Positions 3,001 to 43,441 of a DNA stretch of 64,000 nt are shown here, piece after piece. The stretch is from Minutocellus sp. GHC0000111 (taxonomy: Eukaryota), in assembly GCA_977018835.1 (NCBI GenBank), contig OZ361259.1, positions 3,844,001 through 3,908,000 of the forward strand, written 5' to 3'. Position 1 is the stretch's first letter; each line of letters begins with the position of its first letter. The notes below the pieces were generated by a model, which was given only the letters and a program-made list of their open reading frames with translations, was not told the DNA's origin and made no database searches. A program made the translations under genes and the position numbers.

Positions 3001-4239
3001 ATCTGCCGAGTACAGTCCATCAATGGTCCGGAATGGGTTGCACGCCAATAGGATGGGTCCGGTGTTGGTGTAAACTTCACCGCTGTCATACCTCGTGCGA
3101 AGACAGTGCACCACCGCCGGTTCATGCAGATGCGTCAACTCAATCAAATCGTCTGGCGGCATCATTGGCGTGGCTGCAGTCACGTTCGTCGTGCTCCACC
3201 ACGAGTTGGCCGGAGCGGTACCATCTCGAACATCCTCGCTCGATATCGTTATCGTTCGTCCAGTATATGTCGGGTAGTCCTCATCTTGTATCGTTATCGT
3301 AAGAGGCAAAACTGGCTTGGAATCATCTTCTGCTGTCTGCCTTTGTCTGTTATGTCTTTGATGTGTTTGTCGTCCATTGGGTATTGGGGTGGAATTGCTC
3401 CGATGGAAAAATGCCGGTGATGTTGACGACGGCGATCTGGTCGTACCATTCTGTTCATTGCCAAATCGAGGCGAAGCCGCAGACCCAACTCTCCGAAGTT
3501 TGACATGGCCAAACGGACTGACGGGTCCTTCTTCCTCAATTGCACCATTGCAAACATTGCCATTGTCGTTGGCGTCATTGTTTGCACCAGCAGCACCATT
3601 ATTTCGGTCTGCACCATCAGACCCAGTGGGAGACGCTGACGTGCCCGCTGGTATGGCCCAACCTCTGACCCAACCCCAGTCCTGCTCCGATCGGCCGCTA
3701 CCCTCTGCCCCCGCACCGTCCATCCCTGTCGATGATGATGCCGAGGGCGAGCCAAATCTGCGATTTCGGCCAAACTGTCGTCGGGCAGCCTGCCCCAAGG
3801 CTGCACCGCCGTTGCCGTCCTCGGAAAGGTAGTGCTCTAGCACCGACGTTTTGATCCAGATTGGGTTGCCCCCGCTCCCACTGCCGCTCGCTGCGTGAGG
3901 GGGTGTGCCGATGCCGGCGGCATTGGACGGTCCATTGCCGCGAGTCGTGTGGTTGCTGCGAGGCAATGCCGAGGAGGGCGAGCGAGGCACATCCCGTGCT
4001 GCGAACGAATTTGATCCGGAGCTGCCAGCAGCACTGCTGCTGCTGCTGCCAGGCCGAGGTCGGACATATCCTGCGCCAGTTCCAGCACCCCCTCGCGACG
4101 CACGGTACGAGCCGCTGAAGCGGCTGGTGTCGGAGGCCGGCCGGTACGACCGCGGAGTGGAGGAGGTGGCGGGTGCGCCACTAATACCACCTCGTCCCGC
4201 CGGCGGGTCGGCGCCCACCCGCGATGGGTTGAAGGGCAT
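1..4239 (-). CDS. Unconventional myosin heavy chain (motor domain plus IQ motifs); 3' end runs off the window; intron 2553-2674
   Basis: Exon 1 has DDLIELTHLHEPAV, YTNTGPILLACNPF and the P-loop GESGAGKT. A GT-AG intron (AG|gtgag...aag|T) joins NPILE to SFGNARTIRNDNSSRFGKF. Exon 2 has YLLEKVR, ERNFHIFY, LDIFGFE, NSFEQLCINYCNE, HYAG and IQ-like motifs (IQAAWRRF, LQRQFRG) near 520-610. Confidence 0.95.
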
Positions 4240-5660: not shown

Positions 5661-7178
5661 TTACAACTCACCAGAGTCCAAGGAAGCTGCTCGTCGAAAG
5701 TTCCAAGAACTCAAAATTTCCCATCGTAGATCACTGACACTGATCATAATGAAGCCAGTAACGGCCGCAAGGATCATCATCAACGTTATGATGATCACAT
5801 ATCTTTTCTGTTTATTGCTCATCACCTCCTGACTTGCTCGATCCCCACAACGAGCTACGAGATGAGGCGTCTGCCGCAGTAGCTCATAAACGGTGTCCAG
5901 ATCGCAATTTGTTTCACAACTAGCCGCCAACATGAACGGGTAGAGGCCGTAGACGCCATTCCTAGTCTCCAAAGCTTTTGGTTCGATATCAATAATCATC
6001 TTCATCCGGTTGTCGGAGTAACCACATCCGCTGCCGATGAGGATATGAAGAGGCAAATTACCTTTGCGGTCAAGCATCCTAACCATTCCTGGGTGGCCAA
6101 AAGGAGGCTTCAGGAGCATTCGGACGATATTTTCATTTGCCTTCTTATTCAATAGAGCCAAATGTAGAACTGAACGTCCATGTCGATCACGATCTTGACA
6201 TTGATTTGAATAAACGGCCAGCGCATATCGAATTATCGATTCTGGACAGTCCAATTCAACTAGTGTATGGAGAAGTGGCATCTTTGTCTCACCAAATGAT
6301 CTTCCCTTCGCCTCAATCGTTTCCGAGGCCAAAATCAATAGTTTCTCCCACTTTCGCTTTGCCGATGGGCTCAGACTCTTGGATTTATCGCTTGATGATT
6401 GCCCCGCATCTTTTTTCCCCTCTGAAACTGCCATGTTCCCAAGCAAAAATTCTTGCAATTCGACGCCCTTATCGATCACATCTATCGCAGCACGAAGAGG
6501 AGTAATTCCATTTGTGCTTTCTTGCAGCACATCCCTTGTGCCTTTGCCCCATCCCCAGTTGCACTTTTCCCCTTCTTCAATCAGGTATTGTAAAACATCT
6601 ACACCCACGTTCGTCGCATATGCCGCTCGATGCAACGGTAGATAATCAGCATTGTTCAATATATATACTGCCCGAGGACAAGCCTCCACAATTGTCTTGG
6701 CTGTTGCTAAATTCTTGACGGAATGCAATGGGGTACACCCACCTGAAACTCTGCAGGTCCACGCTGCTGCCTTGGGACAGGCACGAACGATAAGTCGAAT
6801 TATGTCGGGGTCGAGACCAGTTGATACAGCCATGTGGAGAGGACTGACGCGAGTCATGGGATTTGCATAGCTACACGCTCGAGGACATGCCTCTACCATC
6901 TGACGAATGATGTGATCAGGAATCTCTCGACGTGTTCTGGTCGTGGTCTGTATGGCAACCATTAGACAATTGTCCCCTGTTTGTGATACAGAGGCCACCT
7001 CTCGAGGATGCGTCGATATTCGTCTGGATGCAGCCTTCAGAATAGTGCCTTCATAGTCGGAAATTTGGTCAAGGATGTCGTTTGGTACATTGTCGACAAA
7101 GGGTCCTCCCGTCAGTAAATCGAGTAGAGGGGTCACGTCAGCCAATACCGCGACGGGTTCCTTGGCCTTCGACTGCAT
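5661..7178 (-). CDS. Ankyrin-like repeat protein (diatom LPLH type) with a C-terminal transmembrane helix
   Basis: 505-aa ORF with repeated SPLH/TPLH/LPLH/SVLH motifs, a GLYPFMLAA...LDTVYELLR end motif and a hydrophobic C-terminal segment. Confidence 0.8.
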   Translation of the reverse strand: MQSKAKEPVAVLADVTPLLDLLTGGPFVDNVPNDILDQISDYEGTILKAASRRISTHPREVASVSQTGDNCLMVAIQTTTRTRREIPDHIIRQMVEACPRACSYANPMTRVSPLHMAVSTGLDPDIIRLIVRACPKAAAWTCRVSGGCTPLHSVKNLATAKTIVEACPRAVYILNNADYLPLHRAAYATNVGVDVLQYLIEEGEKCNWGWGKGTRDVLQESTNGITPLRAAIDVIDKGVELQEFLLGNMAVSEGKKDAGQSSSDKSKSLSPSAKRKWEKLLILASETIEAKGRSFGETKMPLLHTLVELDCPESIIRYALAVYSNQCQDRDRHGRSVLHLALLNKKANENIVRMLLKPPFGHPGMVRMLDRKGNLPLHILIGSGCGYSDNRMKMIIDIEPKALETRNGVYGLYPFMLAASCETNCDLDTVYELLRQTPHLVARCGDRASQEVMSNKQKRYVIIITLMMILAAVTGFIMISVSDLRWEILSSWNFRRAASLDSGEL

Positions 7179-7279: not shown

Positions 7280-8535
7280 ATGCACGACGCGGCACCAGCA
7301 TACCATACCACGCACATCGAAGCACGGAAGCAATTGCCCGTCTACAAATACAAGTCCGAGATATGCCAAACCGTCACCAACAACGAGGTGACGCTCGTAG
7401 TGGCCGAAACTGGATCGGGAAAGTCTACCCAGATCCCATCGTTCCTTCACGAGGGTGGTTGTCTCAAGCAGAATCGCAGCATGATCCGTAAACCCCAGGT
7501 CAAACGCAAGAGTCCGTATGGCAAGTCGATCTGCGTCACCCAGCCCCGTCGAGTGGCCGCCATTACCGTGGCCAAACGTGTCGCCGAGGAGATGGGGTCG
7601 GTGCCCGGTGGACTCGTCGGTCATCGGGTTCGATTCGACGATACCACCGACCTTGCCGGTCCCAACACATCTCGTGTGTGGACGGTATGCTTCTCAGAGA
7701 GGCACAATCGGACCCACTATTGAAGAGATATGGCATCGTTGTTCTGGATGAGGCTCATGAACGGTCCTTGCAGACAGATGTCCTTTTTGGTGTCGTCAAG
7801 CGCGCAATGGATGCCAGGATGGGACGATACAATAACTCTGCCATGGATCAGCAGGTGGACGAAAATGACAAGGACAACCGCATTCGCAATGCCCTGGGAA
7901 AGGTCGCGGCCCAGCTGGAATTGCCACCGCTCAAGGTTGTGGTCATGTCGGCAACTCTCGAGGTGGAGACCTTTCAGCAATTCTTTCAGAATGTACCAAC
8001 CGAAATGGTCAAGGTTCCTGGACGATTTTTCCCAGTAACGACGCTGTACACCAAGGGGGCACAAGAGGACTACATTGATGCCGCTCTGTCTGCAGCATTG
8101 CAAATTCATCGAGATGGAGAAGAGGGAGATGTATTGATCTTTCTCCCGGGTCAAGAAGAAATTGAAGACCTGGCGGCACTCTTGAGAAAGCATCTGGATG
8201 AGGAGGCTGATCTGGCGAGAACATTAACCAGTGGCGAGAATGAAAGTGGTGGCGATGACGAGGACGATAAGGGCGACGATAAGAAGCCACCCGTAGACAT
8301 TGTCCAGTCTCTCAAGGGAATGGGAACCAATCTCAATTCTGGCCAGAATGCCATTGTCAACGGTGTGCTCGTTTGCGTCCTATATGCAGCCCTGCCGCCA
8401 GAAGCTCAAATGTTTGCCTTCCAGCCCCGACCTGATGGATGCTCTCGCAAGATTATTTTGGAAGGTATTCGCTACGTCATTGATACAGGAAAACAAAAGG
8501 TTCGAGAATTCAGCGGCTCGACTGGTAGATATTGA
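7280..8535 (+). pseudogene. DEAH-box RNA helicase (Prp22/Prp43/DHX33 family), disrupted and truncated
   Basis: Motifs [37 protein letters not shown] and [11 protein letters not shown] are present. There is a frameshift at ~7678, motif V (ATNIAETS) is missing between KIIL and EGIRYVID at ~8460, and the frame stops at 8535 before motif VI. Confidence 0.9.
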
Positions 8536-10987
8536 AGAACAACAAGAGCAATCCCGTGAGTTGACCACCACGCCCCCGTGGGCAACCGGATCCGACTGTA
8601 CGCCCGATGGACCATTCTACAATCCTGGAGCCGTCGATACGTGCCGAGATTGTTGCAAGGAGCGAAAGTGCCGCAATCGGTGCCTCAATCAGTGCAAGAG
8701 CGACGCCTCCAGTAAGGCCCAGAGGCGTAAGGAGTACTGTAAATCATACAGGGGCTACGAGAAGGACGGTCCACCCGACTGGACTACCTGCTCCAACAAA
8801 CTCGGAGAATACAAGGATTCGCACTGCTCGGATTACGATAAGTGTGTGACCAAGTACGAAGCCAGGCATATCGCCGACGACGCGTGGTATTACTGCGACG
8901 ATTTGCACGTTCCTACCTTGGACTGCTCAGGGTTTGGAGATTGCGTTTATGAGAAATTCAAGCAAATCGCCCTTCTGAAAAGCAAATCAGCACTCAATGA
9001 TTGCAAGGCGGGGGTGTATAAGAATTACGCAGAGGGCAAGTGCGATATTTCCTGCCTCCCAAAGAATAGGCGCCTCCAGCAGGATCAGTGGAAAAGTGAC
9101 TGTCCGAAGAAGCAAACATGTTTTGATTGCGAGTAAGTATATTTTCGATTGTATCTGTTTTTTTGTAAGAAATACGGCAATTGTTCCTTTTTCATTGTGC
9201 GTTGATCTAATGCTAATTCCCTCGCTTCGATGCTTCACATCAAATGACAGAACTACATGCTGTGGCGCATATGGCAACCCTGCTGGATGTACCGACCTTT
9301 GTTGTAAGTGCCCAGGCCGATGCACAACTCCGCCAACACCTTCTCCAGGTGGCTGTACCGACCAGGAGTGCATCGACTATTCCAAGTGTGTCTACGGTTT
9401 CTACGAAGCCGAGGCCCAGAAGAAGAAATATGAGGCCGAACACTCCTGCAAGCCTAATAGCTTTGTCAGCGGTAAATGCGACTACAAAATCCCCGAGTGG
9501 AAGCCCAAGTGTGGGGATTGCAACAATTGGCATAGTAAAGATGATGATGACTGGTGCGACGCATGCAAGGCAAACAATTGCGACGACATTCTCAAGGAGC
9601 TTCAGTTTGCCAAGGATCACTCCAAATCCGGTTCCAAGGGTCGACGTGCTATCTGCGACGACTTTTGGTACTGCATCGAGGAGTATGAACGTGATTATGA
9701 TGGTTCGGAGAGTAGGGAAAAAGGCAACGATGCAAGGAGTGACTGCAGAAGATGCGAAAACAACGGCGGGTAAGTTTGGTAAACCGCGCCGAAGTTCATC
9801 ATTTATGAGTCTATTGTTTTGAAAGCCCCGTTTCACTCATCTCTTGCTCATCTCTACTCCACTCGTCTTGAATGTTTACACCCATTACAACGTACTTTAC
9901 AGTGACTGCAAGGACGAGGTCGGCGACGATCACGAAAAGGGCAAAGATGATGTGTGCCTGAGTTATCTCGGCGGCTGGGACCGATCCTGCAACTCGTACT
10001 ATGACTGCTGGAACGATGATCTTCGAGGCGAGTGTAACGATTGCGCCAACAACGTTGGCGGATTCGATTGCGATCTAAAATACGAACAGTGCAAGGATAA
10101 TTGTTTGGAGTCTACATCAATCGTTTCCTGCGAAGATGAATGTGATGTATGCTTCTGTGAGAGTAACCCCGATCTCGGCATTGAGAAATGCCAATCCATC
10201 GGAGACGATTGCTGCAAGGATCCATATGGTGAGTTCGGATATTTTATTGCGCGGATATTTACCTTATCTTCGTTTGCCTTAGCTGACAATTTATCTTACT
10301 CTCTTTCATTTATCTCTCAACTCTTCAGGATGGCTCAACGATCCGGACATGAGAAGTCTGGAATACATTCGCAAATGTTCTCCTTCTAACGACTGTGGCA
10401 CATGCCGTGGTAATTGTGAAAAAAATGATGACTGCCACAACGTCAACCTTTGCTCCAAGGACCCAGACAACTTTAAGGCCATATATGAAATCCCTGGGTG
10501 CAAGGGCGACCCTGCAAATGTGAGAGTTCCAGGAAACCAAGATCCTTTGGAGGTTGGTTATTGCTACAACCCCAACAAGAGCTACCCGGATCGCACCACC
10601 CTCACCAACCGCTGTCTTGCCGAGACCACAACGAATGGGTACGGCCAGTGCTGCGGTCTCCCTCGCTTCGCCTCGCAGTGTGGACAAACCTTCAACAATT
10701 ACTGTGATCGCAAACAAGACGTAGTGGTCATCCAACCAGGAGAGCCAGGCACGGGCACGGAGCCTAGCACTCCCGTCTTCGAGCTTGCTCGATACACAGG
10801 ATCTTACTGTGGCACATCGCTCGTCGATATCTGCAGCCCTTGCCCATCCGTTGACAGCGATGATGGATGTCCTGCCGTTTCTTGCCCTGACAACAAATTC
10901 TGCATCACCGTCAAAGATATCACTTGTCCTGGATGCTTTGTCCAAACTAGTGTGACCAGCGTCGAACGCTCGGGTGGAGGCGATTAG
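8528..10987 (+). pseudogene. Cysteine-rich, probably extracellular protein with a frustulin ACR-like domain; 5' end missing; introns 9133-9250, 9770-9902, 10229-10328
   Basis: Three GT-AG introns join four Cys-rich exons in frame. The last exon has CGTCRGNCEKNDDC...LC...IPGCKG...YCY, resembling the frustulin acidic cysteine-rich repeat. No start codon or signal peptide is visible and the frame abuts the helicase remnant. Confidence 0.7.
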
Positions 10988-24050: not shown

Positions 24051-25806
24051 ATGTTTGCAGGCATCCTGGACCTCCTGAGAGTGTGCATTGGACTTCGTTT
24101 TGGTCACATATTTGTAATCCTCTATGGCATTGCCTCCATTCTCCTGGCCACCTTTAATTTTACCGTGCGCAATCAATTGTTGGAACTGAGACGGCCGCAG
24201 GTTGAAGCGGATGCGGAGTCGATGGGATATGCAGCAAATTCTTTGCAACCACAACGTGATTATGTTACCACCAATGCCACCGGGGATAATCGACAAAAGC
24301 AAAAGTCTACTACTTGATGTGCATCCTCTCGGGGGATTGGACTGTACTGATTACGGAGGACCAACGGCAAGAGTAGCCGTCGACGACATGATCTATTGGT
24401 CTGATCTCCCAGCGGATTCCACCTATAAAAGCCCGTTCTCACGCAACAAAGATTCAAGGGAAAAATATCTCACGTTTGAACAGGATGATGCAGGCTTTAA
24501 CAATATGCGATCGTCGATGGAGGTAATCGTTGTATTGGCCCATGCGACGGGACGCACGCTGGTCCTGCCACCGAAACAAAAGATCAATATGCTGGGGGGC
24601 AAGAACGGTGGGGAGGAGGGATGGTCATTGAATGACTTTTTCCATCTTGACTTGCTAGCGAAACAACATGAGGGGATCGATATCATATCAACTGAAGAAT
24701 ATCTTCGAGAAAGAACAGCATCCTCGACTGCCGATGTTGACAACCTACCGCCGCCGCCGCAAGGAAGGATCAATTGGGATCATGCAAGCAAAGAAGAGCG
24801 GAAATTATTGGCGTCATATCTCAGAGAGCACTCCATCATACCTCAGGAATGGGATCCCACCGAGTGCGTCCTGGGAATACCGAGTTCTCCAGGACAACAT
24901 GGGCTAGACGAACTCAGGGAAGCCATGGAAACAGTCGCTCAGATGAAACCGGAGGCAGTTCCATGGGATCCTCCTCCAAAGGATTCATCGGTGGAGTACA
25001 GGTTGAGAGAAATACTTGGTGGGCGCAAAAAGCTGTGTTAATACAATGAGAGACTGCAGGAGGCCCCGGTACTTCACATCCCCCGAGACGAAACATATTT
25101 TCGATTATTGACCCACTGGTATGCCTTCCTCTTATTTCAGGGCCACGAGACTGATCTGTATTACAAACGCTTTGTAAGAGACAACATCCGGCTCCATGAC
25201 GAATTACAGTGCGCTGCGGGTCGCATCGTGGCTGAATTACGGCAAAAGGCACGGGAAATGGGCGACAAGGACGGACGATTCCATACCATGCATATTCGGC
25301 GAGGCGACTTTTTGGAATGGTTTCCAATAACTGGGCTATCGGCAGAGGAATTGTATGAGACAAGTAAAGCAGAGCTTGAAAAATTGTCCGATGTGAGGGT
25401 GCTGTATATTGCGACGGATGAACGAAAAAGGGCCTTCTTTGATCCGTTTCGCAAGAAGTACCATGTGTTCTTCCTAGACGATTTTGGCGATATCGCCAAC
25501 CTTTCCGATAAACGCTTTGGTGGTATGGTTGACCAATTAATAGCAGCCAAGGGAGAAGTGTTCTGGGGCACATTTTGGAGTACATTTTCGGGATATATCA
25601 ATCGATTGCGAGGTTATCACGCAACGAGAGCAGAACTTCCAGGAGCTGAGCGAGGCGAATTGAAGAGATTTTACTTTTCTCCAGAGCAAAAGATAAATCA
25701 GATGCGACAGTACATGCCCGTCAAGCTCCCATTGTTCATGCGCGATTTTCCCACGAGTTGGATCAATTTGGAGAAAGATAACAACAAAGGAACGACAAGG
25801 CGGTAG
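24051..25806 (+). pseudogene. GDP-fucose protein O-fucosyltransferase family; frameshift at ~24315 and in-frame TAA at 25039-25041
   Basis: N-terminal membrane anchor, KYLTFEQDDAGFNNMR, ATGRTLVLPP, MHIRRGDF, LYIATDE, DQLIA and GTFWSTFSGYINRLRGY. Similarity continues across the stop (KKLC*YNERLQEAP). Confidence 0.85.
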
Positions 25807-27587: not shown

Positions 27588-28099
27588 GGTTGCGGAGCTT
27601 CCTTGGCTTTGTTTGTCTTTGAACCATGAACATACGAGTGCCGTGCTACGTACGTCACAAGGTCTATTGAAACATCCTTCAAAACAGCAAGTTCTAAGTT
27701 GTACCCTGCAAACGGCATAAAACATCCAGAAAATCCGCCCATTTCTGTGGCTTCGACCCAATTTTTCAATAAGACTACGGCACCGAGCCTCAGCCAAAGC
27801 CGTCCTGCTGGTGTGGCCACAACCAAACCAAGCACGCCCAGCGAAGGTGCGGCCGGCCGATACAAAATTTATTCTATTTGCTAGTCCCAAGCCAAGAGAG
27901 AAGTAATTAAAGCGCAGAGCGAAAAAGAGGAGGTAGCAAGCGGGTTCTTGGTGGTCAGCAGGGTGTATCGTATTGTATCCAAGTTGAGAATTGTTTTGAC
28001 ACGGCCCAGACAAAGCCGGCAAAGGGAGCCATCGATCGATCGATTGAAATACGATCTACTGGCCTAGCTAGCTAGTCGCAAACAACTCAATAAATAAAT

Positions 28100-31000
28100 A
28101 TGGCCCGAACCAAGCAGACCGCGCGCAGGACGACCGGGAAACCGCCGTACGCCAAGCCAACGGCGTCGTGGAGCACCCTGCCCCAATTGGCCAGCAAGTT
28201 CAGCCGATACAACCATCTCAGCGCCGGTGATAAGTTCGGCAGGAATACTACGAGCAACAAGGAGGTGAATAGCGCCGGTAGCAATAGCAGTAGTGCAGCT
28301 GCCGGTTCCAGTGTCGATAACAACAAGAAGAAGTCCCACAAGGAAGAGGACGTGATTGTGATACTGGACAGCGACGACGAGGAGGAGAAAAAGGGTGGGG
28401 CGGGTGCCGATGCCGCCGATGTAGGCATTCTAGCCACTACGAAGAAGCAGGCGGGAGACAGTGCCAGTACCAGCAGCAAGGAGCAGGTCGAAAGCAGCAC
28501 AGGCCAAATGAAGGCCAAGAATAAGAAGAATGAGGAACCCAAGAAGACCAAGCCAACAACTCGATTCGATGTATTTCAGGCGCTCCATCAAGTGGACTAT
28601 CCGGGGACCTTCTGCGCTGGGGGTGATGCCAAGGACATACTGCCATCAATTCCGGGATTGGTGATCGATGGCATTGGCCCTGTTCCGCTACCTCTCTCCG
28701 ATGCAATGGCCAAAACCCTCCTTACTGCTGCCCCATCAGATAGTTCTGGTTTGTCGGTGACATCCCTCATGGAGGGACCGACTCATCGAAATACGTATGC
28801 CATCCCAGCCGACAAGGTCACATTCAGCAACCCATCGTGGAAGGGTGGGTTGGACGAGCTGCTCGACAAGGTGTGCGCTCTGCTTGGAGCGGATCGCACC
28901 TGCGTCACGGCCAAGCTGGAGTCCCTGCTGATCATGGAGAAGGGATCAACGGTGAATCAGCCGAGGGCCATCGGTGATGATGGCGATGACGATGACGATG
29001 GCGAGCACATGGGCACACTGATCGTACAGCTCCCATCCATATTTAGGGGTGGGAATGAGTCCATTAGGACTCAATTCGAGTATGTCGAGGAAGAATATGA
29101 TGACGATGAGGAGGAGGGCGAAGCTGACGATGAGAAGGAAAACGAACTGCTCCACGCCGTAGATATGCTGTACATTGCCGCCGATGACAAAACATCTTTG
29201 ACCGCCCAAGATGTCATTCGATCGCTTGTGGATGTCCATTCGTACAAACTGGACCAGGCTCAGAAGCAAAAGGTTGGAGAGTATCTGTCAGATCTGCTCG
29301 CTGTGGATGAAGGAAGTGGCAATCAACCCTCTGAAGAAGTATTGGTTCGAGCTGTCAACCTACTGTTTTTGGCTTCCGACGATGCCCGTGGTATCAATGT
29401 AGGCGATGTGTGCCGATCGGTGGAGGAGGCTCACCGGGTGAAGCTCGACGAAGCCTCAAATAAGATTATCACCCAGCACCTCGATGATCTGCTTCAAGGG
29501 AAGAAGCTTCCCATCGATTTGCCTACTGAGAATTCAACCGACGTGGCAGGTGCACCAGCAGCCCCCCGAGAGGCAGATGCGAATGAGGCGGTCGATGGTC
29601 AGCATGGGCACAGCAAGAATCTGCCTGAGGATGGAATGGCACAAGAGAACAATGATAATGAGATCGAGGAAGAAATGCCGACCGAGACGATCACAAAGCA
29701 GCTAGTTCTCAAGGGCGATGCTGATGATGCCTTTGGGTGCCGTTTCACCTGCTATTTCGCGGACTGCGACTACAGGTGCCAATCACTGTCATCTGGGAGG
29801 CGTTTGGTTTTGTCGTATTCTCTTTGCTACAATTCAAATACTCGCTCTAGCGAAAATGAAAATGTCGACGCCAATGAGGGTATTGATACCAGCTCTGACG
29901 AGAATGTGGCATGTTCCGGTGTACTAGTAGAGACCCCTCCCAAGCCCACTGCAAGGCTTGTCTGTAGTTCCACTATCCCACTCAAGAATACTCTCGACCT
30001 CCTACCCCGATCGGATCGAATCTTTCTTGTTCCACTCGAATTCTTGTATGATAGTAATTCTTTGGTCAATGCCGGCATAGATGCATTATTCGATGTCGAT
30101 CGACGTACTTACCAGAGCCTCAAGGTTGCTACAGAAACCACATGGAAGCTCCTCGTCATTGAAGCTGAGATGGTATTCTCGAAGGTCACAGAATACGAAG
30201 GAGATCTGCTCAAAACCTCCGAAAAATCGAAGTTGACTGCCATGGTGGGGGATAACGGGGAGGCAATATCACCTGCCGATAAAGAATGGATCGAAGGTGT
30301 TGTTGATTTCAATTCTTGCGAACGAAACAGTACTGGGATGATGCTATCGTATGATATGGAGGAAATACCCCACGGAGATCACGACAGCTATTTTGGCCAT
30401 TGCAATTGTGCAGAGTGTAACCCTCCTGACTACACCGCCGAGAATGTTTGGGGTGTGGGAAAGAGCGAGCACGACTCCGAGTACCACGAGATACACCATT
30501 ACGGCCGGTATCGAGACAAGACGACGTATCGTAGCAATTTCCTTCTGGCGTTTGATGTGAATTCTGCTTTTGAATTGAAGCTTCAGGGTGGAGTGGAGGC
30601 AATCAGTGATGCCATTGAGACAATCTCGTTGACGAACGACTACAGCCTACTCAAACGATTGATGGATACTGTCGCGGCGATGCCATCGTCAAAGAAAAAG
30701 CTCCCGGAGAAGTCTTGCTGCAAACTGATGTCGATGGTGATGAACGATGATTGTCCGGTGGAGAAGGACGAAGCAGTATCATTCGCGAAGGTGCTTCTGG
30801 GTAATTTTACTGTCGCAGATGCAAATGGGGAGCCAAGCCAGGAGCTTTTCCGTTGCATGTCGTTGGCTATCCCAAAGATTGGGTGGCAAACCATTATTCT
30901 CCGCCTCTCACGAATCTTCGATGATCGAAGGCGCAAGGGAAAGAAGTTGTTCCTTTCCGTGCCCCAATTCGTTCGCAGGGTCGATTTTATCTTCGACGCC

Positions 31001-32032
31001 AAATACCACTGCAGTCAACAAGAGCTTGATTACTTCCTGAAGCTTTGCGTCGACGATTTGACCGGGTCATCGTGCAATTATTCATCACGTTGTGGTGAAG
31101 AGCATCGCCCTGACTCTGACGCCATTTGTCTTGATATCGAAGCTTGGGTCAAAAAATATGGCTGGAGAATGATTGAACCCGTGGCGCTTGCCTTGTGGGA
31201 AAAGCTGCGAATCGCAAATAAAAATCACTGCCGTGTCTACCGCGAAGAATGCAGGGGGCTGATCAACATGGCTCAGTCACTACTTCGTCTCTATTCTGGA
31301 AGCAAATCTTCATCGTTCCGTTCATCTGTCGAGGTGCCCTTGCGTCGCTGTACACGAGATTTCATCGCAAAGATCGAGTTTCCTGATCGATTCAAAAAAA
31401 TCACAACCAGCGGCCAGTCGGCTACAACAACTTTCGATTTACTTTCTGACAAGGACTGGGTCGATCTCTTTCTGACAAAACGCACCCTCTTTGAGCATGC
31501 CTCGCCGGCACAATTGGTTCAATTTGGGCAATGCTTGGCCAACGATGAAAGCAAGCTGTCAAACCTCCTGAAAACGTTGGGCATCGATCGAAGCCGACCT
31601 CACCCTGTACTTCGCGACGTCCTCAACAAGTGCTTCTTCCAGATTACTGTCGGAGGAAAGTGGAAACGTGAGGCAGGTGCTGACCCTTTCCTTACTGCTT
31701 CTTTGCACGTGAAGAAAGTACTCTCGTCATGCCCTCGTATTGCATCGGAGAGGGACCTGGTCGGGCGCCTGCCCCTGCATAATTCTGTCTCATGCTACTG
31801 GCCAAAATTGGAGAACGTGATGGAGATCTTCAAATTCAACACAAATGCCGGTTCGACTATTGATCCGGTCACGGGCCTTTATCCATTTATGTTGGCGGCC
31901 AGACATGGCAGTATCGACGTGGCGTTTCGGCTTCTCCAGGAAGATCCAAACCTAGTGTCTGGTGGCATTCCGGCCGATAGTCGAAAGAGGAAGAGGGCGG
32001 AGAGCAAGGCCGGGGCTGCAACATCCGATTGA
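28100..32032 (+). CDS. H3-tail-mimic protein 1: H3-like N-terminus, degenerate 2OG-oxygenase-like fold, two DEK-C-like domains, ankyrin-like C-terminus
   Basis: 1310-aa ORF starting MARTKQTARRTTGKPP; contains GTLIVQLPSIFRGG, SGRRLVLSYSL, two helical repeats at ~29140-29500, GRLPLH...DPVTGLYPFMLAA and a C-terminal RKRKR. Confidence 0.85.
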   Translation: MARTKQTARRTTGKPPYAKPTASWSTLPQLASKFSRYNHLSAGDKFGRNTTSNKEVNSAGSNSSSAAAGSSVDNNKKKSHKEEDVIVILDSDDEEEKKGGAGADAADVGILATTKKQAGDSASTSSKEQVESSTGQMKAKNKKNEEPKKTKPTTRFDVFQALHQVDYPGTFCAGGDAKDILPSIPGLVIDGIGPVPLPLSDAMAKTLLTAAPSDSSGLSVTSLMEGPTHRNTYAIPADKVTFSNPSWKGGLDELLDKVCALLGADRTCVTAKLESLLIMEKGSTVNQPRAIGDDGDDDDDGEHMGTLIVQLPSIFRGGNESIRTQFEYVEEEYDDDEEEGEADDEKENELLHAVDMLYIAADDKTSLTAQDVIRSLVDVHSYKLDQAQKQKVGEYLSDLLAVDEGSGNQPSEEVLVRAVNLLFLASDDARGINVGDVCRSVEEAHRVKLDEASNKIITQHLDDLLQGKKLPIDLPTENSTDVAGAPAAPREADANEAVDGQHGHSKNLPEDGMAQENNDNEIEEEMPTETITKQLVLKGDADDAFGCRFTCYFADCDYRCQSLSSGRRLVLSYSLCYNSNTRSSENENVDANEGIDTSSDENVACSGVLVETPPKPTARLVCSSTIPLKNTLDLLPRSDRIFLVPLEFLYDSNSLVNAGIDALFDVDRRTYQSLKVATETTWKLLVIEAEMVFSKVTEYEGDLLKTSEKSKLTAMVGDNGEAISPADKEWIEGVVDFNSCERNSTGMMLSYDMEEIPHGDHDSYFGHCNCAECNPPDYTAENVWGVGKSEHDSEYHEIHHYGRYRDKTTYRSNFLLAFDVNSAFELKLQGGVEAISDAIETISLTNDYSLLKRLMDTVAAMPSSKKKLPEKSCCKLMSMVMNDDCPVEKDEAVSFAKVLLGNFTVADANGEPSQELFRCMSLAIPKIGWQTIILRLSRIFDDRRRKGKKLFLSVPQFVRRVDFIFDAKYHCSQQELDYFLKLCVDDLTGSSCNYSSRCGEEHRPDSDAICLDIEAWVKKYGWRMIEPVALALWEKLRIANKNHCRVYREECRGLINMAQSLLRLYSGSKSSSFRSSVEVPLRRCTRDFIAKIEFPDRFKKITTSGQSATTTFDLLSDKDWVDLFLTKRTLFEHASPAQLVQFGQCLANDESKLSNLLKTLGIDRSRPHPVLRDVLNKCFFQITVGGKWKREAGADPFLTASLHVKKVLSSCPRIASERDLVGRLPLHNSVSCYWPKLENVMEIFKFNTNAGSTIDPVTGLYPFMLAARHGSIDVAFRLLQEDPNLVSGGIPADSRKRKRAESKAGAATSD

Positions 32033-32823
32033 ATCGAATACGATGTTCCAGGTCTATATTAGAATATGTGGCTGATTTTGCTGTGTGGGTAGAATTTATT
32101 TGTGACTTGGAATCAATCGTGGGCGTCTAGATCTTCAGTAGAGCGAGCCTGCCTGCCCGATAGTTTGCTAGAGCTGCGTGCACTGTATCTAAGTAGGCCT
32201 TGCATCTCGGAATCGTGATCGGCTTCGATACTCATTTGAATTACTCTCCCACTTGGTATAAATACGGTGCAGTCAAGTTAGTTTTCTGGCTACCTGTACA
32301 TGTAGGTATTGCAGAGTCTAGAGAAGAATGAATCGAACGCATTCCGCTCCCTGCTACATGTACGTCTATTGCTTTAGCTGCTAAGTCATATACAGTGCAT
32401 CGAATGCGAAGTAGCAGAAACAGAGACGATACTACTTACTATCCCCAAAGGCGGCATGTCCTGGTCGATTGTGCGTGGGCGGCTTGGCTGCTTTCTTGTT
32501 CTTTGAGCTGAGGCGTGTGGCATTTCTGCACATTGGATTTGTCGGGACTCGTTTCGGGACTGATACCGGCCGGCAACCTGCCAGCAGCAGAGCAGCAGGC
32601 GAGCGCCCACAACACAACCGCCTGACTTCGTGGCCACCTATCCCAGCGGACGCGACCTCAGCTCGTTCACCAATTGACAATAATTACTATACCAAGAGAT
32701 AATAAGAAGCGGAAGGCGTACGACGTACATAAGAAAGAGTCAGCGTCGTTGGGTTTCATTCAATATTATCATTCGGCATCGCGGCGTATCCGAATTTTGA
32801 CACCACCACCATTCGACCGTACC

Positions 32824-35800
32824 ATGGCCCGGACCAAGCAGACGGCCCGTCGACCGGGCTTCCCGTACAAGAAGCCGACGGCGTCGTGGAGTACCCTGCC
32901 GGCGTTGGCCAGCCGTCCACGGCCAGCGTTGGGCGACGTCGGTTCGGCGGTGACCAACAGCAGCAACAATGCTCGTGCGAGTAGCGATACCATCAGCAGC
33001 GCCAGCGCCAGCGACAAGGCCAGCAAGGAGGGCAAGCTGAACCAGCAGCAGAAGGAGACGAACAGCAATGCCGACGAGAACGGCGATCTCAATGATATTG
33101 GTAGCAAGGAGAACAATAATGATCCGCAGCCTGGACCATCTGGGATGGACGTCGACGCCACGATGGAGGAGGAAACCATCGAACCAAAGCCGAACGAGGA
33201 TTATAATGATGATGACGACGATATTCCAATGCCGCTGCAGGATGGTAATGTTGGCGATGATGATGCGGATGATGGCCTACCAGCACTACTAGAAGGGACG
33301 GAAGACGCTGGTGACGTTGGAATTCTGGCAGAGTCGAGCACTACCAACAATCATGACGACGTCGAAGACGAAGATGACGATGATGAAGATGATGATGAAG
33401 AAGAAGAGCCCACGACGAGGTTCGATGTGTACCAGACCCTCAAACGCGTATCATTCCCTGGCAGCATTGCTAGCAGTGGATGTGCCGATGACATCCTCCC
33501 ATCCCTCCCTGGTCTGACCATCGGTGGTTGTCCCGTATCGCTCCCGCTGACCGACGCCGCGGCCAAGACGCTGCTCAAACGATCGTCGGTGGCGTGGCCC
33601 GTCCGCGATCCCACGTACCGCAACACGTATCGTGTACCAGCCGATAAGATTGCCTTTGGCAACCACTCGTGGGAGGGTGGGATGGACGATCTGTTGGACA
33701 CGGTCTGCATTCGGTTGGGCATGGAGCGCAGCCGAATCACAGCCAAGCTGGACATGATGTTCGTCATGGAGGCCGGGGCCAAGGTGGAGAAGCGCAAGGA
33801 TGAGAATGAAATGGCAGCCGACGAGGTACTGGGAACTCTCCTCGTCCAGCTCCCATCTGTGTTCACCGGGGGTACCATTCGTATCCGACATGAGTATGAG
33901 TATGTTGAGGAGGAGGAAGAGGAAGAAGACGATGAGGAAGACACCGATGATGATGACGACGAAGACGTGGTGGACGAGGCAACGCTACTCCGAGCTGTCG
34001 ATTTGATCTACATTGCTGTCGAAGACGAAGCAAGTCTGACTGCCAAGGATATCATCCGTTCGCTGGAGAGGGATCACGAGTTCCAGCTGAACCAGGACCG
34101 GAAAGACTTGGTAGAGGAGCGTCTATCGGACCTGGTCGCGGGTGATGTGTTGCCCCAGATTGAGGAGCGTAGAGACAATAGCAGTGGTGACCAGCCATCC
34201 CGTGGTCTGTTGCTCCGAGCTGTCAACCTTCTCTACTTTGCTACATGTACCGATGGTACTGGCTCCTTCGGGGTGAACGAGGTATGCCAATCGATTCAGG
34301 ATGCCCACCAAATCACTCTCGATCAAGGTTCCAAGGAAATTATCACCAATCAGGTGGCTGGGATCATTGCGGGTACAGTGCTCCCAACGCTCGATGATGA
34401 TTTCTCCGATGCTTCGGTGGCAATGAGCGAGGCAGGCAATACTAGTACTGAGGATGGGGGTGATGATGATGAAAAAGAAGAAGAAGAAGAAGAGAAGGAT
34501 ATGATGATGATGAGGGAGGAAAAGATGCAATTCACACTCGGAGCGGGGGATGACTCTGCTTTCGGGTGCAGATTCATGTGCTACTACTCTGGCTGCGAAT
34601 TTAGTATGAAGCAAATTCTCACCGGACGACGCGTTATGTTGGCATATTCTCTGTGCTATGGTGCCGACGACGATGAGGTTGGTGACGAGGAGAATTCTAA
34701 GGAGAAGGAGGTGGCAACGACTGACGAGAAGAGTCTCAAGCCGAATGCAACGCTTGTTTGCTCATCCATGGTACCTCTTCAGAGATCTCTGGCCTTGCTC
34801 CCACGCGCCAACCGCATTTTTCTGCGTCCGCTTTCCTTCAATTATGATAACACGATTCTGGCGAACCATGCCATCGAAGCCTTGGAAGATAGCGATCGCA
34901 GGATTGCCGAAGGCCTAAAGGTGGCGATGGGTCAGGACTGGAGATTATTCATCGTGGAGGCCAGATTGGTTCACAAAAGAATCACTGGGTACTATGGCGA
35001 TATTCTTGAAAGTGATTACCTGCCCGGTGATTTGTTGAAGGTCTTTGACGAGGATGGTGACGAGATGGAGGATGAGACCGAGGATTGGATTGGCTCTATC
35101 TTAGAATTCGCTTCCTGCGAAGTGGATGACAATGGTGCGATCCTTTGCCGGGAGATGGGGGATGCATTCAACACCGGCTGTGACTGCGGCGCGTGTGGAC
35201 GAAACTTTCTGCCCAAAGATTACACCATCGACGACGTCTGGGGGGAAGGTGACTGTGTAACCAGCGACTGTGGCGAGTATGATGACAAAAGAAAGAAGGA
35301 AACTACGTGGAGCAGCAATTTCCTCCTAGCATATGACGAGTCTAGCGAATTCGAGCTAATGGCTCTTGGTGGAAAAATTGCCATGGAGGACGCCGTGGAT
35401 GATGTTGTGTGTTCGTGGGACGCTAGCCTTCTGAAGCGCTTGGTTCAAGCCATTCAGCTGAAAGGATCCAAGTGCGCGTTGCCTCTTAGCTCTTGTCGTA
35501 CACTGCTCTCGACAATTCTAGGGGAAGACGAGGATTCAGAGGAAGATCGTCTGGTCCCGGACAAGAAGGATATGGTGTCGTTTGTCCCCACAGTTCTCCG
35601 CAACCTTTGTTCCGAAGATGAGCCCGATGAGGATCTTTACAAGTTGGTCCTATCTGCCATTGAAAAGCTCGGCTGGCACAATCTCGTCGAACCAATTGCA
35701 ACTTTGATGAAGAAGAAGGCCAAATTGCAAACGTTGAAGCTCCCGCAATTCCTGAGCCGCGTCGAGTTCATTTTCAAGGCTGAAGCAAACTCTTCCTGCA

Positions 35801-36807
35801 CCACCGACGAGTTGAGAACCTTTCTGGATCTCTCATGTTATGATTTTTCACAGAGTCCGAACTATAAAAAACACCCTCGCGCCGCAAACAAATCGGACAG
35901 CGTTGCTACTTCTGTCATATACGAGAAGCTCGAAGGCTGGGTCAAGGAGCGAGGGTGGGAGCTAATGGAAGGCGTTGCGCAAGTGACTTTCTCTGCCTGT
36001 GCCAATATTGACGAGCAGCAGAATAATGACTATCAGGAGGAGTTAAAAGGACTGATGAAGCGTTGCGAAGCTCTTCTTCGACTCTACTCGGGAAATCCAT
36101 CCGGGCGCACCGAAATAAAAAAGCTCTTGTGCGATGCTGCCAGTGATATTGTCCGCAAAATTGAGCGTCCAGGCAAGTTCCATATCCTTGCATCTGAAGA
36201 GTGGATGTGCATGCTCTTGAAGCGGCTATTGTTTCGTTTTGGCTCACAGACCATCTTTGATCGATTTGGCAAATGTTTGGTAAAAGACGAGGGCGCCTTG
36301 TTGACTGTTCTCAAATACTTGGGCGATCATCCAAACCAGTTTTATCAAATCCACCGGGATATCCTGAATAAATGCCTCGTCCAACACTCAATAAATGGGG
36401 AGTGGAAGAAAGAAGCGGCGGATGAATTCCGTTCTTCTTCCCTTCATATTCGTCGCGTTCTCTCGTCCTACCCCCGCATCGCGTGCGAAAAAGATTTCGT
36501 TGGCCGCCTTCCTCTTCATTGGAGCACGGACTGCGACGGTCCCAAGGTAGACAATGTGACGGATATTTTCAATTCCAATACCAAGGATTGTTCCGTAGCT
36601 GATCCTATCACTGGCCTATTTCCCTTTATGCTAGCTGCGAAGCAAGAATGTACCGATACAGCTACTCAGGGAGGATCCCAGCCTTGTCAGTGGCGGCATC
36701 CCACAGGAGACCAAGAAGAGAAAGAGGAGCGAGGAAACGGAGGCATCCAGCGACAAATCCTAGCTGGAGGGCACTCTGGCGAGAAAGCTATCAGCGAGAT
36801 CGATTGA
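32824..36807 (+). CDS. H3-tail-mimic protein 2 (tandem paralogue); late frameshift at ~36663, ancestral stop at 36761-36763
   Basis: accATG start of MARTKQTARRPG and the same domain order as paralogue 1. The homologous tail LLREDPSLVSGGIPQETKKRKR lies in a shifted frame. Confidence 0.8.
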   Translation: MARTKQTARRPGFPYKKPTASWSTLPALASRPRPALGDVGSAVTNSSNNARASSDTISSASASDKASKEGKLNQQQKETNSNADENGDLNDIGSKENNNDPQPGPSGMDVDATMEEETIEPKPNEDYNDDDDDIPMPLQDGNVGDDDADDGLPALLEGTEDAGDVGILAESSTTNNHDDVEDEDDDDEDDDEEEEPTTRFDVYQTLKRVSFPGSIASSGCADDILPSLPGLTIGGCPVSLPLTDAAAKTLLKRSSVAWPVRDPTYRNTYRVPADKIAFGNHSWEGGMDDLLDTVCIRLGMERSRITAKLDMMFVMEAGAKVEKRKDENEMAADEVLGTLLVQLPSVFTGGTIRIRHEYEYVEEEEEEEDDEEDTDDDDDEDVVDEATLLRAVDLIYIAVEDEASLTAKDIIRSLERDHEFQLNQDRKDLVEERLSDLVAGDVLPQIEERRDNSSGDQPSRGLLLRAVNLLYFATCTDGTGSFGVNEVCQSIQDAHQITLDQGSKEIITNQVAGIIAGTVLPTLDDDFSDASVAMSEAGNTSTEDGGDDDEKEEEEEEKDMMMMREEKMQFTLGAGDDSAFGCRFMCYYSGCEFSMKQILTGRRVMLAYSLCYGADDDEVGDEENSKEKEVATTDEKSLKPNATLVCSSMVPLQRSLALLPRANRIFLRPLSFNYDNTILANHAIEALEDSDRRIAEGLKVAMGQDWRLFIVEARLVHKRITGYYGDILESDYLPGDLLKVFDEDGDEMEDETEDWIGSILEFASCEVDDNGAILCREMGDAFNTGCDCGACGRNFLPKDYTIDDVWGEGDCVTSDCGEYDDKRKKETTWSSNFLLAYDESSEFELMALGGKIAMEDAVDDVVCSWDASLLKRLVQAIQLKGSKCALPLSSCRTLLSTILGEDEDSEEDRLVPDKKDMVSFVPTVLRNLCSEDEPDEDLYKLVLSAIEKLGWHNLVEPIATLMKKKAKLQTLKLPQFLSRVEFIFKAEANSSCTTDELRTFLDLSCYDFSQSPNYKKHPRAANKSDSVATSVIYEKLEGWVKERGWELMEGVAQVTFSACANIDEQQNNDYQEELKGLMKRCEALLRLYSGNPSGRTEIKKLLCDAASDIVRKIERPGKFHILASEEWMCMLLKRLLFRFGSQTIFDRFGKCLVKDEGALLTVLKYLGDHPNQFYQIHRDILNKCLVQHSINGEWKKEAADEFRSSSLHIRRVLSSYPRIACEKDFVGRLPLHWSTDCDGPKVDNVTDIFNSNTKDCSVADPITGLFPFMLAAKQECTDTATQGGSQPCQWRHPTGDQEEKEERGNGGIQRQILAGGHSGEKAISEID

Positions 36808-40721: not shown

Positions 40722-42287
40722 CTAAATGCCGCTTTCGGGATCATCATTGGCTTTAGGAGCACTGCGAGGAGGAGGGCTCCGAGCAAAGGCTTTTGGCGGT
40801 GGGGGTCGAGGTCGAGACGAGTAGGAGTCCTCAGAATAATCACGGATATGCACATATTGACGCTGCCCATCATCACCGAGATTTTGATTCCACAATTGTC
40901 GGTGGTCGCTATCTTCGACATAGAAGCGATGATCGATGGACTTGCCTCTCACTAAATTGCGTGTTGATTTGGCATTTTCAGGATGCAGCTCAGCAACCCA
41001 CTCTTCATAGGTACAGTCTGGAGTTTCGGAGAGAAACACAGTCAAATGCCCTTGAATTGCGTCCAAGCATGCCTGATATGCCTCTTGCTTGAGGTATTCA
41101 AGCGCCTTGTTCTTGTCTTCTTCGCTCTCAAATTCACCGTCGATATCAAGGGCACTGTCGGAGTACTGTTCCGGACCCTCATCGATGGACCTCCCACTTT
41201 CGGTTCTGCGCTTGAAGCGCCTCTGTCTCAAACCCTGGAGGACACGCCTTGCCCTAGCCCCTCGCGTAGTCTTTTGCGTATCCTCACTTCCTATAGAGCT
41301 ACTACTGTGTTTGAACATCGCTTGCTCATTCTGGGCGTTCAGTTCTTCCATCTCAGCGACGCTAAGCTGGAGCTGTTTGAGAGATGCGCTAAGGCTTGAT
41401 CTGGCTGAAGCTTCAAGGCCGTTTCTTCGATTCCCACCTGCTGCTTTGGCGTCACTGTCGTCTTCTTCAATGATCAGCTGGCGGATGGACTCGTTAACAT
41501 TCCGCATGAGCGTGTCTTCATTGTGGTTCCTTTGGTATTCGACACTCAATTTCCGCACTGATTGGGTCGCAAAGACTGCCCTGTCGCGCATCTGCAAGGA
41601 AGCTCGACGATCCCTCAAACCTCTCGGGGGTGGTGGGATCGGCGGACGGATATTTCTCACATGTTCGGCATCAATCGCCGAAGGAGCCAGCTCGAACAAA
41701 ACGGCCTTTGGTCTATCAGAACATTTCAGACGTTGATATATGGCATCCCTATCACCACCTCTGCCATCGATCTTGACCATAGTCGCGCCTTCAAAAACAG
41801 CAGGGTCGAGTAGGCAGTCCAAGCACAAAGCCGTTGACTGGGTGTCCTTCACCAGACCACGAACCTTCAAGACATTCTCATGCAAAGTATCCAGTTGGAT
41901 TCCCAGAGTGCTCTGCTCTCGAAATACAAGCTCTATAAATCGATCGTATCGCTTGTTAACGTTGACTGCCTCCTCGACTCCGCGTGAGTCTTTTGGCATC
42001 AGCATTATGGAAACAGGTCTTTCCATGTTTCCATCGCTCAGATACTTATCGAAAATATGGTCAGCGTCGTCTTCGTTCCACTTTACTCCATTGACGCCTA
42101 GGATGGCGGCACCCCGAAACAAATCTGGATCAATCATTGCCTTGGACGTGCACACTGCTCTCGAGAGTTTGGCCAATGCCTTGACGGTGGGAGGACGGCG
42201 CCGAGCGGGCGCCGACGATGGCGGCCGCTGTTCCAGCTCAATGCCCAGCGGGGCGGCATCTCTCAAGATGAGCTGGATGAAGTTCAT
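40722..42287 (-). CDS. Protein with two PDZ-like repeats and a diatom-type C-terminal domain
   Basis: Two repeats of FI.L..R....LGI.L...GA.I..[VI][ND]G, and a C-terminal TYEEWVAELHPEN...IDHRFYVEDSDHR.LWN block. Confidence 0.7.
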   Translation of the reverse strand: MNFIQLILRDAAPLGIELEQRPPSSAPARRRPPTVKALAKLSRAVCTSKAMIDPDLFRGAAILGVNGVKWNEDDADHIFDKYLSDGNMERPVSIMLMPKDSRGVEEAVNVNKRYDRFIELVFREQSTLGIQLDTLHENVLKVRGLVKDTQSTALCLDCLLDPAVFEGATMVKIDGRGGDRDAIYQRLKCSDRPKAVLFELAPSAIDAEHVRNIRPPIPPPPRGLRDRRASLQMRDRAVFATQSVRKLSVEYQRNHNEDTLMRNVNESIRQLIIEEDDSDAKAAGGNRRNGLEASARSSLSASLKQLQLSVAEMEELNAQNEQAMFKHSSSSIGSEDTQKTTRGARARRVLQGLRQRRFKRRTESGRSIDEGPEQYSDSALDIDGEFESEEDKNKALEYLKQEAYQACLDAIQGHLTVFLSETPDCTYEEWVAELHPENAKSTRNLVRGKSIDHRFYVEDSDHRQLWNQNLGDDGQRQYVHIRDYSEDSYSSRPRPPPPKAFARSPPPRSAPKANDDPESGI

Positions 42288-42523
42288 GGGCGTCGATTAT
42301 CGGTAGTTGGGAGCCGGTATCTGCATACGCCGGCGGTGGTTCGCCGGTCGCCGGGGGCAAGGGCGGGGGTCAAATCCTTCCCCTTCGGATTTTTGTGTGC
42401 CCGCCCTGTCCGTCTATCCGTCAAGTAAGTGCGCCGAGGATAGGAGCCGAGCGAGCGAGATCGATCGAGAGGGGAGGTGGTGGCCGTCATATGCTTGGAA
42501 TACAGCATCCTCAGGTGCCAACT

Positions 42524-43441
42524 ATGTGCGATACCTTTACGACAATAATTCCCAGACACTGTTCAGCGCTTCGTGATACGCCCATTTCGATCAAACCAGA
42601 TCCCGAACGCAAGAGACCACGGCCAAAACCTCCCAAGGTTGGAATTCTCATCATCCAGTGCCATCTCGATAGGGTGGTATGGAATGCGTTCGTTCCGATT
42701 GTGCTTTCCCCTTCGATGGGTGATGATGGCGCACTGTCGAAAGCTTGTATGACCCTCAGGAGACATTACAAGCGTCAGGTTCAGTATGTTTGTCAGAAGG
42801 CAACATCTACAAGCGAAGCGAAACTGATGGATGAGACATCAGACGATAACTTTTACAGGCAGACAGTTTCGGCAGTGGTGCCCCATAGGCGCAAAAGAAA
42901 ACGCCCTCGACATGTTTTGGTGATTGTTTTACCGCCCTACCCACATATCGGCTGCACATCGCCGCCGACATTGGAACCTGAGCGATTGTTCACGTCAAGG
43001 TTGGTTCGGCTGGAAAACATCATGGTTCGTCTCCAGAGCTTGAACGCATTCTTCTCCACACTCGGTGGTGGATACTTTCTCTGCAGATATCTCACCACGG
43101 CAGTGCAGCTGGCGCGGTGGCAGCGAACCATTGCTCTGTCGTTGGGTGATCGAGACTTGGCGGCTCGTTGCACTGTCAATGAAGCGTACAATTACATTCA
43201 TGCGGGTAAACTCAAACATGCATTTCATCTCATCAAGAAGGTAAAGGAAGATGCAACCAAAAGAGGCGACATGCTGACAGTCAGTATGTGCAAGAGTGCC
43301 AGATATTTTGCCAAACGAGTCCAAAATAACATGGCATTCGAGGGCAGCAAACAGGGAGTAGATGACGAGCTGCAACGTATACGAATTGTTGCCGATCACG
43401 ACAAGATCAATCGAACATTTCGGCCTCTTCACGAATTGTAA
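42524..43441 (+). CDS. Conserved hypothetical protein, possibly DUF4807-like or TPR-like (start uncertain)
   Basis: STLGGGYFLC...LARWQRTIALSLGD...RCTVNEAYNYIHAG helical motif. Confidence 0.6.
   Translation: MCDTFTTIIPRHCSALRDTPISIKPDPERKRPRPKPPKVGILIIQCHLDRVVWNAFVPIVLSPSMGDDGALSKACMTLRRHYKRQVQYVCQKATSTSEAKLMDETSDDNFYRQTVSAVVPHRRKRKRPRHVLVIVLPPYPHIGCTSPPTLEPERLFTSRLVRLENIMVRLQSLNAFFSTLGGGYFLCRYLTTAVQLARWQRTIALSLGDRDLAARCTVNEAYNYIHAGKLKHAFHLIKKVKEDATKRGDMLTVSMCKSARYFAKRVQNNMAFEGSKQGVDDELQRIRIVADHDKINRTFRPLHEL

Follow-up and report, generated by a model that had tools for sequence, protein, structure and literature searches.

What does a large protein gain by beginning with the first residues of histone H3 when no histone follows? 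The question is raised by two tandem genes, P1 (P0001) and P2 (P0002), in a 64,000-nucleotide (nt) stretch of DNA from Minutocellus sp. GHC0000111 (assembly GCA_977018835.1, contig OZ361259.1, positions 3,844,001 to 3,908,000; hereafter the window). Both genes are uninterrupted single open reading frames (ORFs) on the forward strand, each starting MARTKQTARR; an earlier note, made from the sequence alone, had placed these starts at 28100 and 32824, and its coordinates and open frames were verified. Comparison of related sequences indicates that the H3 tip is real and held by selection, and that it is carried by a 2-oxoglutarate (2OG)-Fe(II) dioxygenase fold that has lost its catalytic triad. 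We lean, by a narrow measure of confidence, toward P1 and P2 being a nuclear pseudoenzyme scaffold whose H3 tip docks on H3-tip readers. The genes and the elements of their N-terminal parts are as follows.

28100..32032, + strand: P1 (P0001), 1310 amino acids, single ORF
28100..28129, + strand: P1 H3-tip mimic, residues 1-10, matching H3 1-8 after Met removal, with Arg at H3 position 9
28145..28198, + strand: P1 second conserved block, approximately residues 16-33, not significantly H3-like
28352..28387, + strand: P1 hydrophobic-then-acidic stretch, presumably like a SUMO-interacting motif by its pattern; missing in P2
28415..28432, + strand: P1 short linker motif, residues 106-111, marking the older N-terminus of the enzyme-dead clade
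32824..36807, + strand: P2 (P0002), 1327 amino acids, single ORF
32824..32853, + strand: P2 H3-tip mimic, residues 1-10
32863..32916, + strand: P2 second conserved block, approximately residues 14-31
33310..33327, + strand: P2 short linker motif, residues 163-168

An orthologue of P2, L075 (1305 residues, 61% identical), was recovered by scanning metagenome contigs (31 of 64 parts) with a back-translation of the start. A protein search yielded P0003 (1287 residues), P0004, P0005 and P0006, and a second one P0007. Six proteins, P1, P2, L075, P0003, P0004 and P0007, share the identical ten N-terminal residues; the expectation that orthologues keep the tip is thereby borne out. Over the whole length of P1, P2, L075 and P0003, residues 1-10 form the longest invariant run, the next longest being six residues. 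The test of selection on the first ten codons that the earlier note had proposed was carried out on the DNA of P1, P2 and L075. Codons 2-10 hold no non-synonymous difference in any of the three pairs, despite changes at 6/8, 5/8 and 3/8.3 synonymous sites, and the proportion of non-synonymous sites changed (pN) in the same pairs is 0.42-0.56 in the adjacent linker and 0.12-0.41 in the folded parts. At the rate of the dioxygenase part, the probability of an unchanged tip is 0.001 for P1/P2 and 0.08 for P2/L075. Searches with P2 residues 1-45 returned only already known members (1/19 and 4/16 candidates).

The mimic is confined to residues 2-10, as judged by shuffling. The earlier note had also seen an echo of H3 (resembling STGGKAP and QLATK) further along P1; the score of P1 past residue 10 was equalled by 279/5000 shuffles and that of P2 by 3631/5000 (1692-3631/5000 across the other three proteins, including P2), and the echo was rejected. 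The note had further taken the Arg at H3 position 9 to be a designed, K9-dead feature. This Arg is invariant and encoded by three different codons (AGG, CGA and CGG), yet 68 of 121 matches (in 120 loci) of a metagenome motif scan have a histone fold, in a scan whose pattern forced Arg at this position, such that its counts do not tell whether Arg is favored. Replacement of Lys9 by Arg is therefore better viewed as common drift of H3.

Away from the tip, the two proteins have diverged to 36% identity (492/1357 columns), and a six-frame search of the window found MARTKQTARR-type motifs only at the P1 and P2 starts. Pfam matched no histone family in either protein, in agreement with the claim that no histone fold follows the mimic; a dioxygenase fold comes after the tip instead. 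The second block is conserved (15/23 identical between P1 11-33 and P2) and the linker behind it poorly so (31/117 for P1 34-150). The earlier description of a kept mimic and second block joined to an unalignable stretch was accurate, except that the stretch is not entirely unalignable: the six-residue motif at P1 106-111 is retained within it. All six mimic proteins have a Trp-x-x-Leu core in the second block (28163-28183 and 32881-32901), which we take to follow the pattern of Atg8-binding motifs.

The body of the proteins was assigned by homology and by modeling. In the Atlas, P1 150-850 fell among clusters of PF13640 (score 0.90), a family annotated on 17-36% of their members, and a representative search returned 1353 relatives at E 0.001 or better in bacteria and eukaryotes, the best 150 of which underlie the profile, triad and N-terminus comparisons. 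With a profile derived from these relatives, each of the two proteins gives two separate matches (best independent E values 6e-46 and 5e-43); in P1 the two parts (6e-46 and 4e-12) flank an insert of two repeats of approximately 57 residues. The Pfam PF13640 profile itself matched neither protein. A model of P2 195-615 (71 alignment rows; predicted local distance difference test, pLDDT, 73.9) was compared with solved structures, and its best matches were all 2OG oxygenases, with prolyl-hydroxylase-like enzymes leading (top match Z 12.9, root-mean-square deviation 3.2, 159 aligned; next Z 12.5 and 12.3). Foldseek with the same model gave nothing at E 0.001, though its top rows were 2OG oxygenases, and a single-sequence fold of P1 148-867 (pLDDT 33.9) was not usable. 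By predicted fold and homology, P1 and P2 belong to the 2OG-Fe(II) dioxygenase superfamily, with the following parts.

28553..29074, + strand: P1 dioxygenase fold, first part, lacking the first iron His
29138..29506, + strand: P1 helical repeats, two in tandem of approximately 57 residues, inserted in the dioxygenase fold
29702..29839, + strand: P1 dioxygenase fold, second part, with Tyr558 in place of the distal His and Arg568 retained
31700..31945, + strand: P1 weak ankyrin-like repeats, Pfam E 0.14 (below cut-off), DARPins E 0.002
33409..34659, + strand: P2 dioxygenase fold, approximately residues 196-356 and 565-612, with repeats 385-522 inserted

Both iron His residues are lost in 5/5 mimic proteins long enough to be compared (P1, P2, L075, P0003 and P0004), their positions in P2 being occupied by Arg324 and Phe593. 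An intact iron triad is present in 90/139 relatives with all four columns filled (18 further rows are incomplete). The distal 2OG-binding Arg is kept as Arg568 in P1 and Arg603 in P2, and also in L075, P0003 and P0004. With the His-x-Asp...His triad lost, P1 and P2 are predicted not to be active 2OG-Fe(II) enzymes. The earlier interpretation was in part right: the mimicry of the tip stands, and the dead dioxygenase body and the broken alleles described below had been overlooked. The helical inserts have three helices each in the model; no family was found for them in Pfam, PDB-sequence and Atlas searches, which did not extend to a fold search of the inserts alone. They may resemble the DEK C-terminal domain, although these searches gave no DEK_C match. 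The ankyrin profile reached E 0.0055 in P0005. A three-cysteine cluster at 30401-30418 of P1, with counterparts in P2, L075 and P0003, is a possible metal site.

In order to place the gain of the tip, trees of the relatives were built. A quick tree built on 137 core rows groups the six mimic proteins in a single clade, which sits within 26 rows, none of which has the full triad (two rows are cut short). A careful tree of 34 rows chosen from the 137 supported the six at 98/95, under a simple model and with an outgroup that was not one clean branch. The short linker motif is nearly specific to the dead clade, occurring in 20/26 clade rows versus 1/127 others. Of the 14 non-mimic rows that carry it, 12 have it at residues 6-18, and the mimic proteins have it at 106-163; this shift suggests that an older N-terminus was extended by the tip, the second block and a large share of the linker, with the caveat that gene calls missing a first exon could blur motif positions. 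Most likely, the tip was gained once, before the P1/P2 duplication, on a clade whose enzyme was already dead. Over its first 39 nt, P1 resembles an H3 gene at 85% or more, as would fit a tip that arose by copying.

Among 149 other relatives, an H3-like start was found, in the matches listed, only in P0033. This protein has an active triad and starts with approximately 55 residues of degenerate H3, in which a damaged tip is followed by a 19/19 match to an H3 tail. Grouping of P0033 with the six mimic proteins was rejected (approximately unbiased test, p-AU 1.3e-7; the group was named after the first tree was seen), and it appears to have captured its H3 tail independently. P0033 is a single record on a 1624-nt contig and could be artefactual or come from a dead gene.

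Whether the tip is the translated N-terminus bears on any role for it. An in-frame stop lies 9 nt upstream of the P1 start, and the preceding 400 nt are without an ATG; the 400 nt before P2 hold one ATG (32456), out of frame, and the 29 codons available upstream of L075 contain no in-frame ATG. Parts of the locus occur in seven RNA runs from two studies. An X4 contig (27897-28151) and an X1 contig (32630-33245) cross the P1 and P2 starts, respectively, without a joint, and the transcripts that splice out the mimic, envisaged by the earlier note as contrary evidence, do not appear among them. The starts it assumed are likely the true ones, given unspliced contigs and selection on the codons; the RNA side of that argument is thin. 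Contigs from X6, X8 and X11, retained at a looser threshold, align only to 28099-28137 and then continue as true H3, so that short reads at the P1 start are contaminated by H3. Depth over the intergenic segment 32115-32455 is 0-0.22 in 6/6 RNA runs, but the segment is covered by two other runs, and the drop is a weak hint of separate transcripts.

The C-termini bear on a predicted nuclear residence, at the following positions.

31982..31996, + strand: P1 C-terminal basic run, five basic residues, a predicted nuclear localization signal
36659..36807, + strand: P2 shifted C-terminus, 8-nt deletion relative to the orthologue, basic cluster now in another frame

P1, P0003 and most full-length members of the clade finish with five consecutive basic residues, which is consistent with the earlier proposal of a nuclear protein. 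Many active eukaryotic relatives end with a basic patch and then a hydrophobic-acidic stretch, which we take to be import and SUMO-binding signals.

The scaffold that we favor would work as follows. Removal of the initiator Met, which is followed by Ala, would leave a free A-R-T-K end on a flexible arm of 140-190 residues, and readers of unmodified or K4-methylated H3 would bind it. Such readers are of the PHD, WD40 or BIR types. The basic tail would bring the protein into the nucleus, where the dead fold, the helical repeats and the ankyrin-like repeats would bind other partners. Arg9 and the lost likeness to H3 beyond it would keep K9 writers and readers off. Docking would in this manner link the scaffold, which is probably nuclear, to chromatin complexes.

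Several observations weigh against this scaffold. In a second haplotype, 7 nt are missing at 29466 of P1 (X2, X4, X5 and X11) and 1 nt is missing at 35449-35450 of P2 (X1, X8 and X11), the latter frameshift at about half the depth in X8 and X11. The end of P0007 is reproduced by a frame shifted at 29466, and P0004 stops at the 35449-35450 site. Furthermore, P2 lacks 8 nt after 36659 that are present in L075 and P1, and it has lost its basic tail; this deletion is not an assembly error, because contigs of X5, X6 and X8 run through it ungapped. Broken alleles of both genes together with the lost P2 tail imply that the genes tolerate loss in this lineage, where the family looks dispensable or redundant; the intact L075 and P0003 show that the family is alive. 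The mimic was found in only about three species-level lineages. The RNA contigs crossing the starts are of low depth, come from mixed samples and show neither start nor strand, and DNA is not excluded as their source; one relative, P0010, was called from an in-frame Met 38 codons upstream. Lastly, K4me3 was not found in vivo on human proteins with H3-like N-termini (H3TMs), according to the part of PMC8166343 available. As to the haplotype itself, it is diverged and was seen in RNA contigs of the two studies and in organism A runs, and the start of P0004 is near-identical to P2 and its later part P0003-like, which hints at a hybrid or mosaic genome.

Five other explanations were weighed. The tip might be a decoy or sink that rivals nucleosomes as a target of H3K4 writers, erasers or readers and dampens their activity, an account we judge improbable though worth keeping in view. 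One tip per 140-kDa protein and a low RNA contig depth would make a poor competitor against abundant H3. Inhibitors of methyltransferases of the K-to-M kind (EZHIP type) hold a Met or Ile at the target lysine, and P1 and P2 differ from this trap in having Arg at position 9. A decoy does fit the conservation of the tip, and influenza NS1 offers a precedent in the portion of PMC6028506 available.

Rather unlikely, in our estimate, is a built-in ligand, in which the tip would fold back onto the same protein, into the pocket of the dead dioxygenase or the helical repeats, and gate the binding of partners or of H3. The closest solved fold relatives include prolyl hydroxylases that modify peptides, the 2OG-binding Arg is retained, and an H3 tail has joined the dioxygenase family twice. 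The tip is nonetheless missing from most of the dead clade, and none of 42 relatives scanned has a histone-reader domain. Similarly small is the chance that the tip is kept for a role without readers, such as nuclear import, contact with DNA or the nucleosome through its basic residues, or N-terminal stability. It is basic, the P2 of the window keeps it though its basic tail is lost, and the same start occurs on many unrelated proteins. A role of this kind should allow exchanges of Lys and Arg and changes of Thr, Gln and Ala, none of which was seen in 6/6 proteins.

Much less probable still is that the tip survives as a neutral remnant of a fragment of an H3 gene, or is refreshed by gene conversion from H3. 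True-H3 contigs do align to the first 39 nt of P1 at 85% or more, and broken alleles exist. The silent sites of the paralogue tips are, however, as diverged as elsewhere (proportion of synonymous sites changed, pS, 0.75) with the amino acids unchanged, which speaks against a relic, and the non-H3 Arg persists on its three codons, which conversion from H3 would erase. On these sequence grounds the reading is already largely refuted. That the tip lies elsewhere than at the translated N-terminus, through another start or splicing, is scarcely credible: the longer call of P0010 and contigs that cannot show a start speak for it, and the lack of an upstream in-frame ATG in the window or in L075's 29 codons, the unspliced contigs over both starts and the coding-type selection on the tip codons speak against it.

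For the docking scaffold that we prefer, the nearest known systems are the H3 N-terminal mimics, or H3TMs (VRK1, BCL11B, PCLAF and others), described in the available part of PMC8166343. Like P1 and P2, they are non-histone proteins whose first residues are Met-small-Arg-x-Lys, and their peptides bind H3-tip readers in vitro (PMC8166343, in part). H3TMs match H3 at the R-x-K core, whereas P1 and P2 match it at eight exact residues; here, moreover, the tip seems to be a copy of the H3 sequence placed in front of a protein that already existed, and this carrier is a pseudo-dioxygenase from a microbial eukaryote. The N-terminus of PAF15 (PCLAF), H3-like as in P1 and P2, is bound by the UHRF1 PHD finger as H3 is, with a Kd of 2.2 uM, according to the portion of PMC7060239 available; PAF15 is small and ubiquitylated at H3-like lysines further along, in contrast to P1 and P2, whose likeness ends at residue 10. 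G9a/GLP and NS1 likewise have short H3-like motifs in non-histone proteins, but these are four-residue motifs, internal or C-terminal, and that of G9a mimics K9, the residue missing in P1 and P2 (PMC6028506, in part). H3K4me2 is present in a diatom, as far as the available part of PMC4504042 states.

On the side of the enzyme fold, uncharacterized 2OG-Fe(II) oxygenases of the PF13640 type have a homologous core and fold; P1 and P2 differ from them in the lost triad, the two inserted helical repeats, the ankyrin-like end and the H3 tip. The Ofd1 C-terminal domain and vaccinia C16 are alike to the P2 model at the level of fold only (Z 9.7-9.9) and have no histone mimic; their dioxygenase folds are, we assume, non-catalytic. 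Literature searches on an H3 tip joined to a dead dioxygenase, based on result listings, found no paper, in keeping with the earlier claim that no described family has this architecture, and the part of PMC2938197 available holds no description of this family.

The metagenome motif scan gives an impression of how widespread such tips are. Of its matches, 53/121 were without a histone fold in the available flanks, although 40 loci were short-flanked and introns were not modeled, so that some of the 53 may be H3 genes; 26 of the 53 are ORFs of at least 100 residues. The dioxygenase family was found among the 120 loci only at L075. When the 25 other non-histone ORFs were scanned, two had VWA plus U-box, one had ankyrin plus MORN, two gave weak matches and 20 none. 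A VWA plus U-box family (L024:69-2162, L041:54-1895, L081 and L112) starts with a longer H3 tail of approximately 25 residues and is possibly a ubiquitin ligase with an H3 mimic. A multicopy family (L006, L028, L032, L062, L064, L092, L094, L099, L116 and L118) has behind its H3 tip a stretch rich in Arg and Asp and a finger-like Cys/His motif, and is possibly a mobile element. Other unrelated ORFs with the tip are L001, L040 and L106; L009 and L066; L013 and L029; L048 (the ankyrin plus MORN ORF); L030 (a weak Agenet match); and L120. The scan suggests that H3-tip grafts are common in microbial eukaryotes.

Elsewhere in the window, the neighbors are ordinary: 2671-4239, 5661-7178, 24211-25041 and 42491-43441 encode a myosin head, an ankyrin protein, an O-fucosyltransferase-like protein and a DUF4807 protein. 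For the ORF at 40722-42287, a member of its cluster and P0003 lie on contigs of equal length (10,967), which suggests a kept gene order. Two overlapping Cys-rich ORFs lie at 8348-9773, the first without a Pfam family at E 0.001.

In known cellular H3 mimics, mostly from animals, the match covers three or four residues; the copy here is of eight exact residues. Selection acting across saturated silent sites, together with an origin that can be dated on a gene tree, makes this a clean case for tests of how a mimic arises and what it binds. H3-tip grafts could also mislead work with anti-H3K4me antibodies, with H3 tryptic peptides and with the mapping of short reads. For the large uncharacterized dioxygenase family, a nuclear role is hinted. 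It is possible, though we hold the idea only tentatively, that microbial eukaryotes repeatedly graft the H3 tip onto unrelated proteins as a portable chromatin-address module, and that it was captured here by a dead dioxygenase, with an H3 tail captured a second time, in the same family, by an active enzyme. If so, this double capture would point to a hidden link between the dioxygenase family and H3-tail chemistry.

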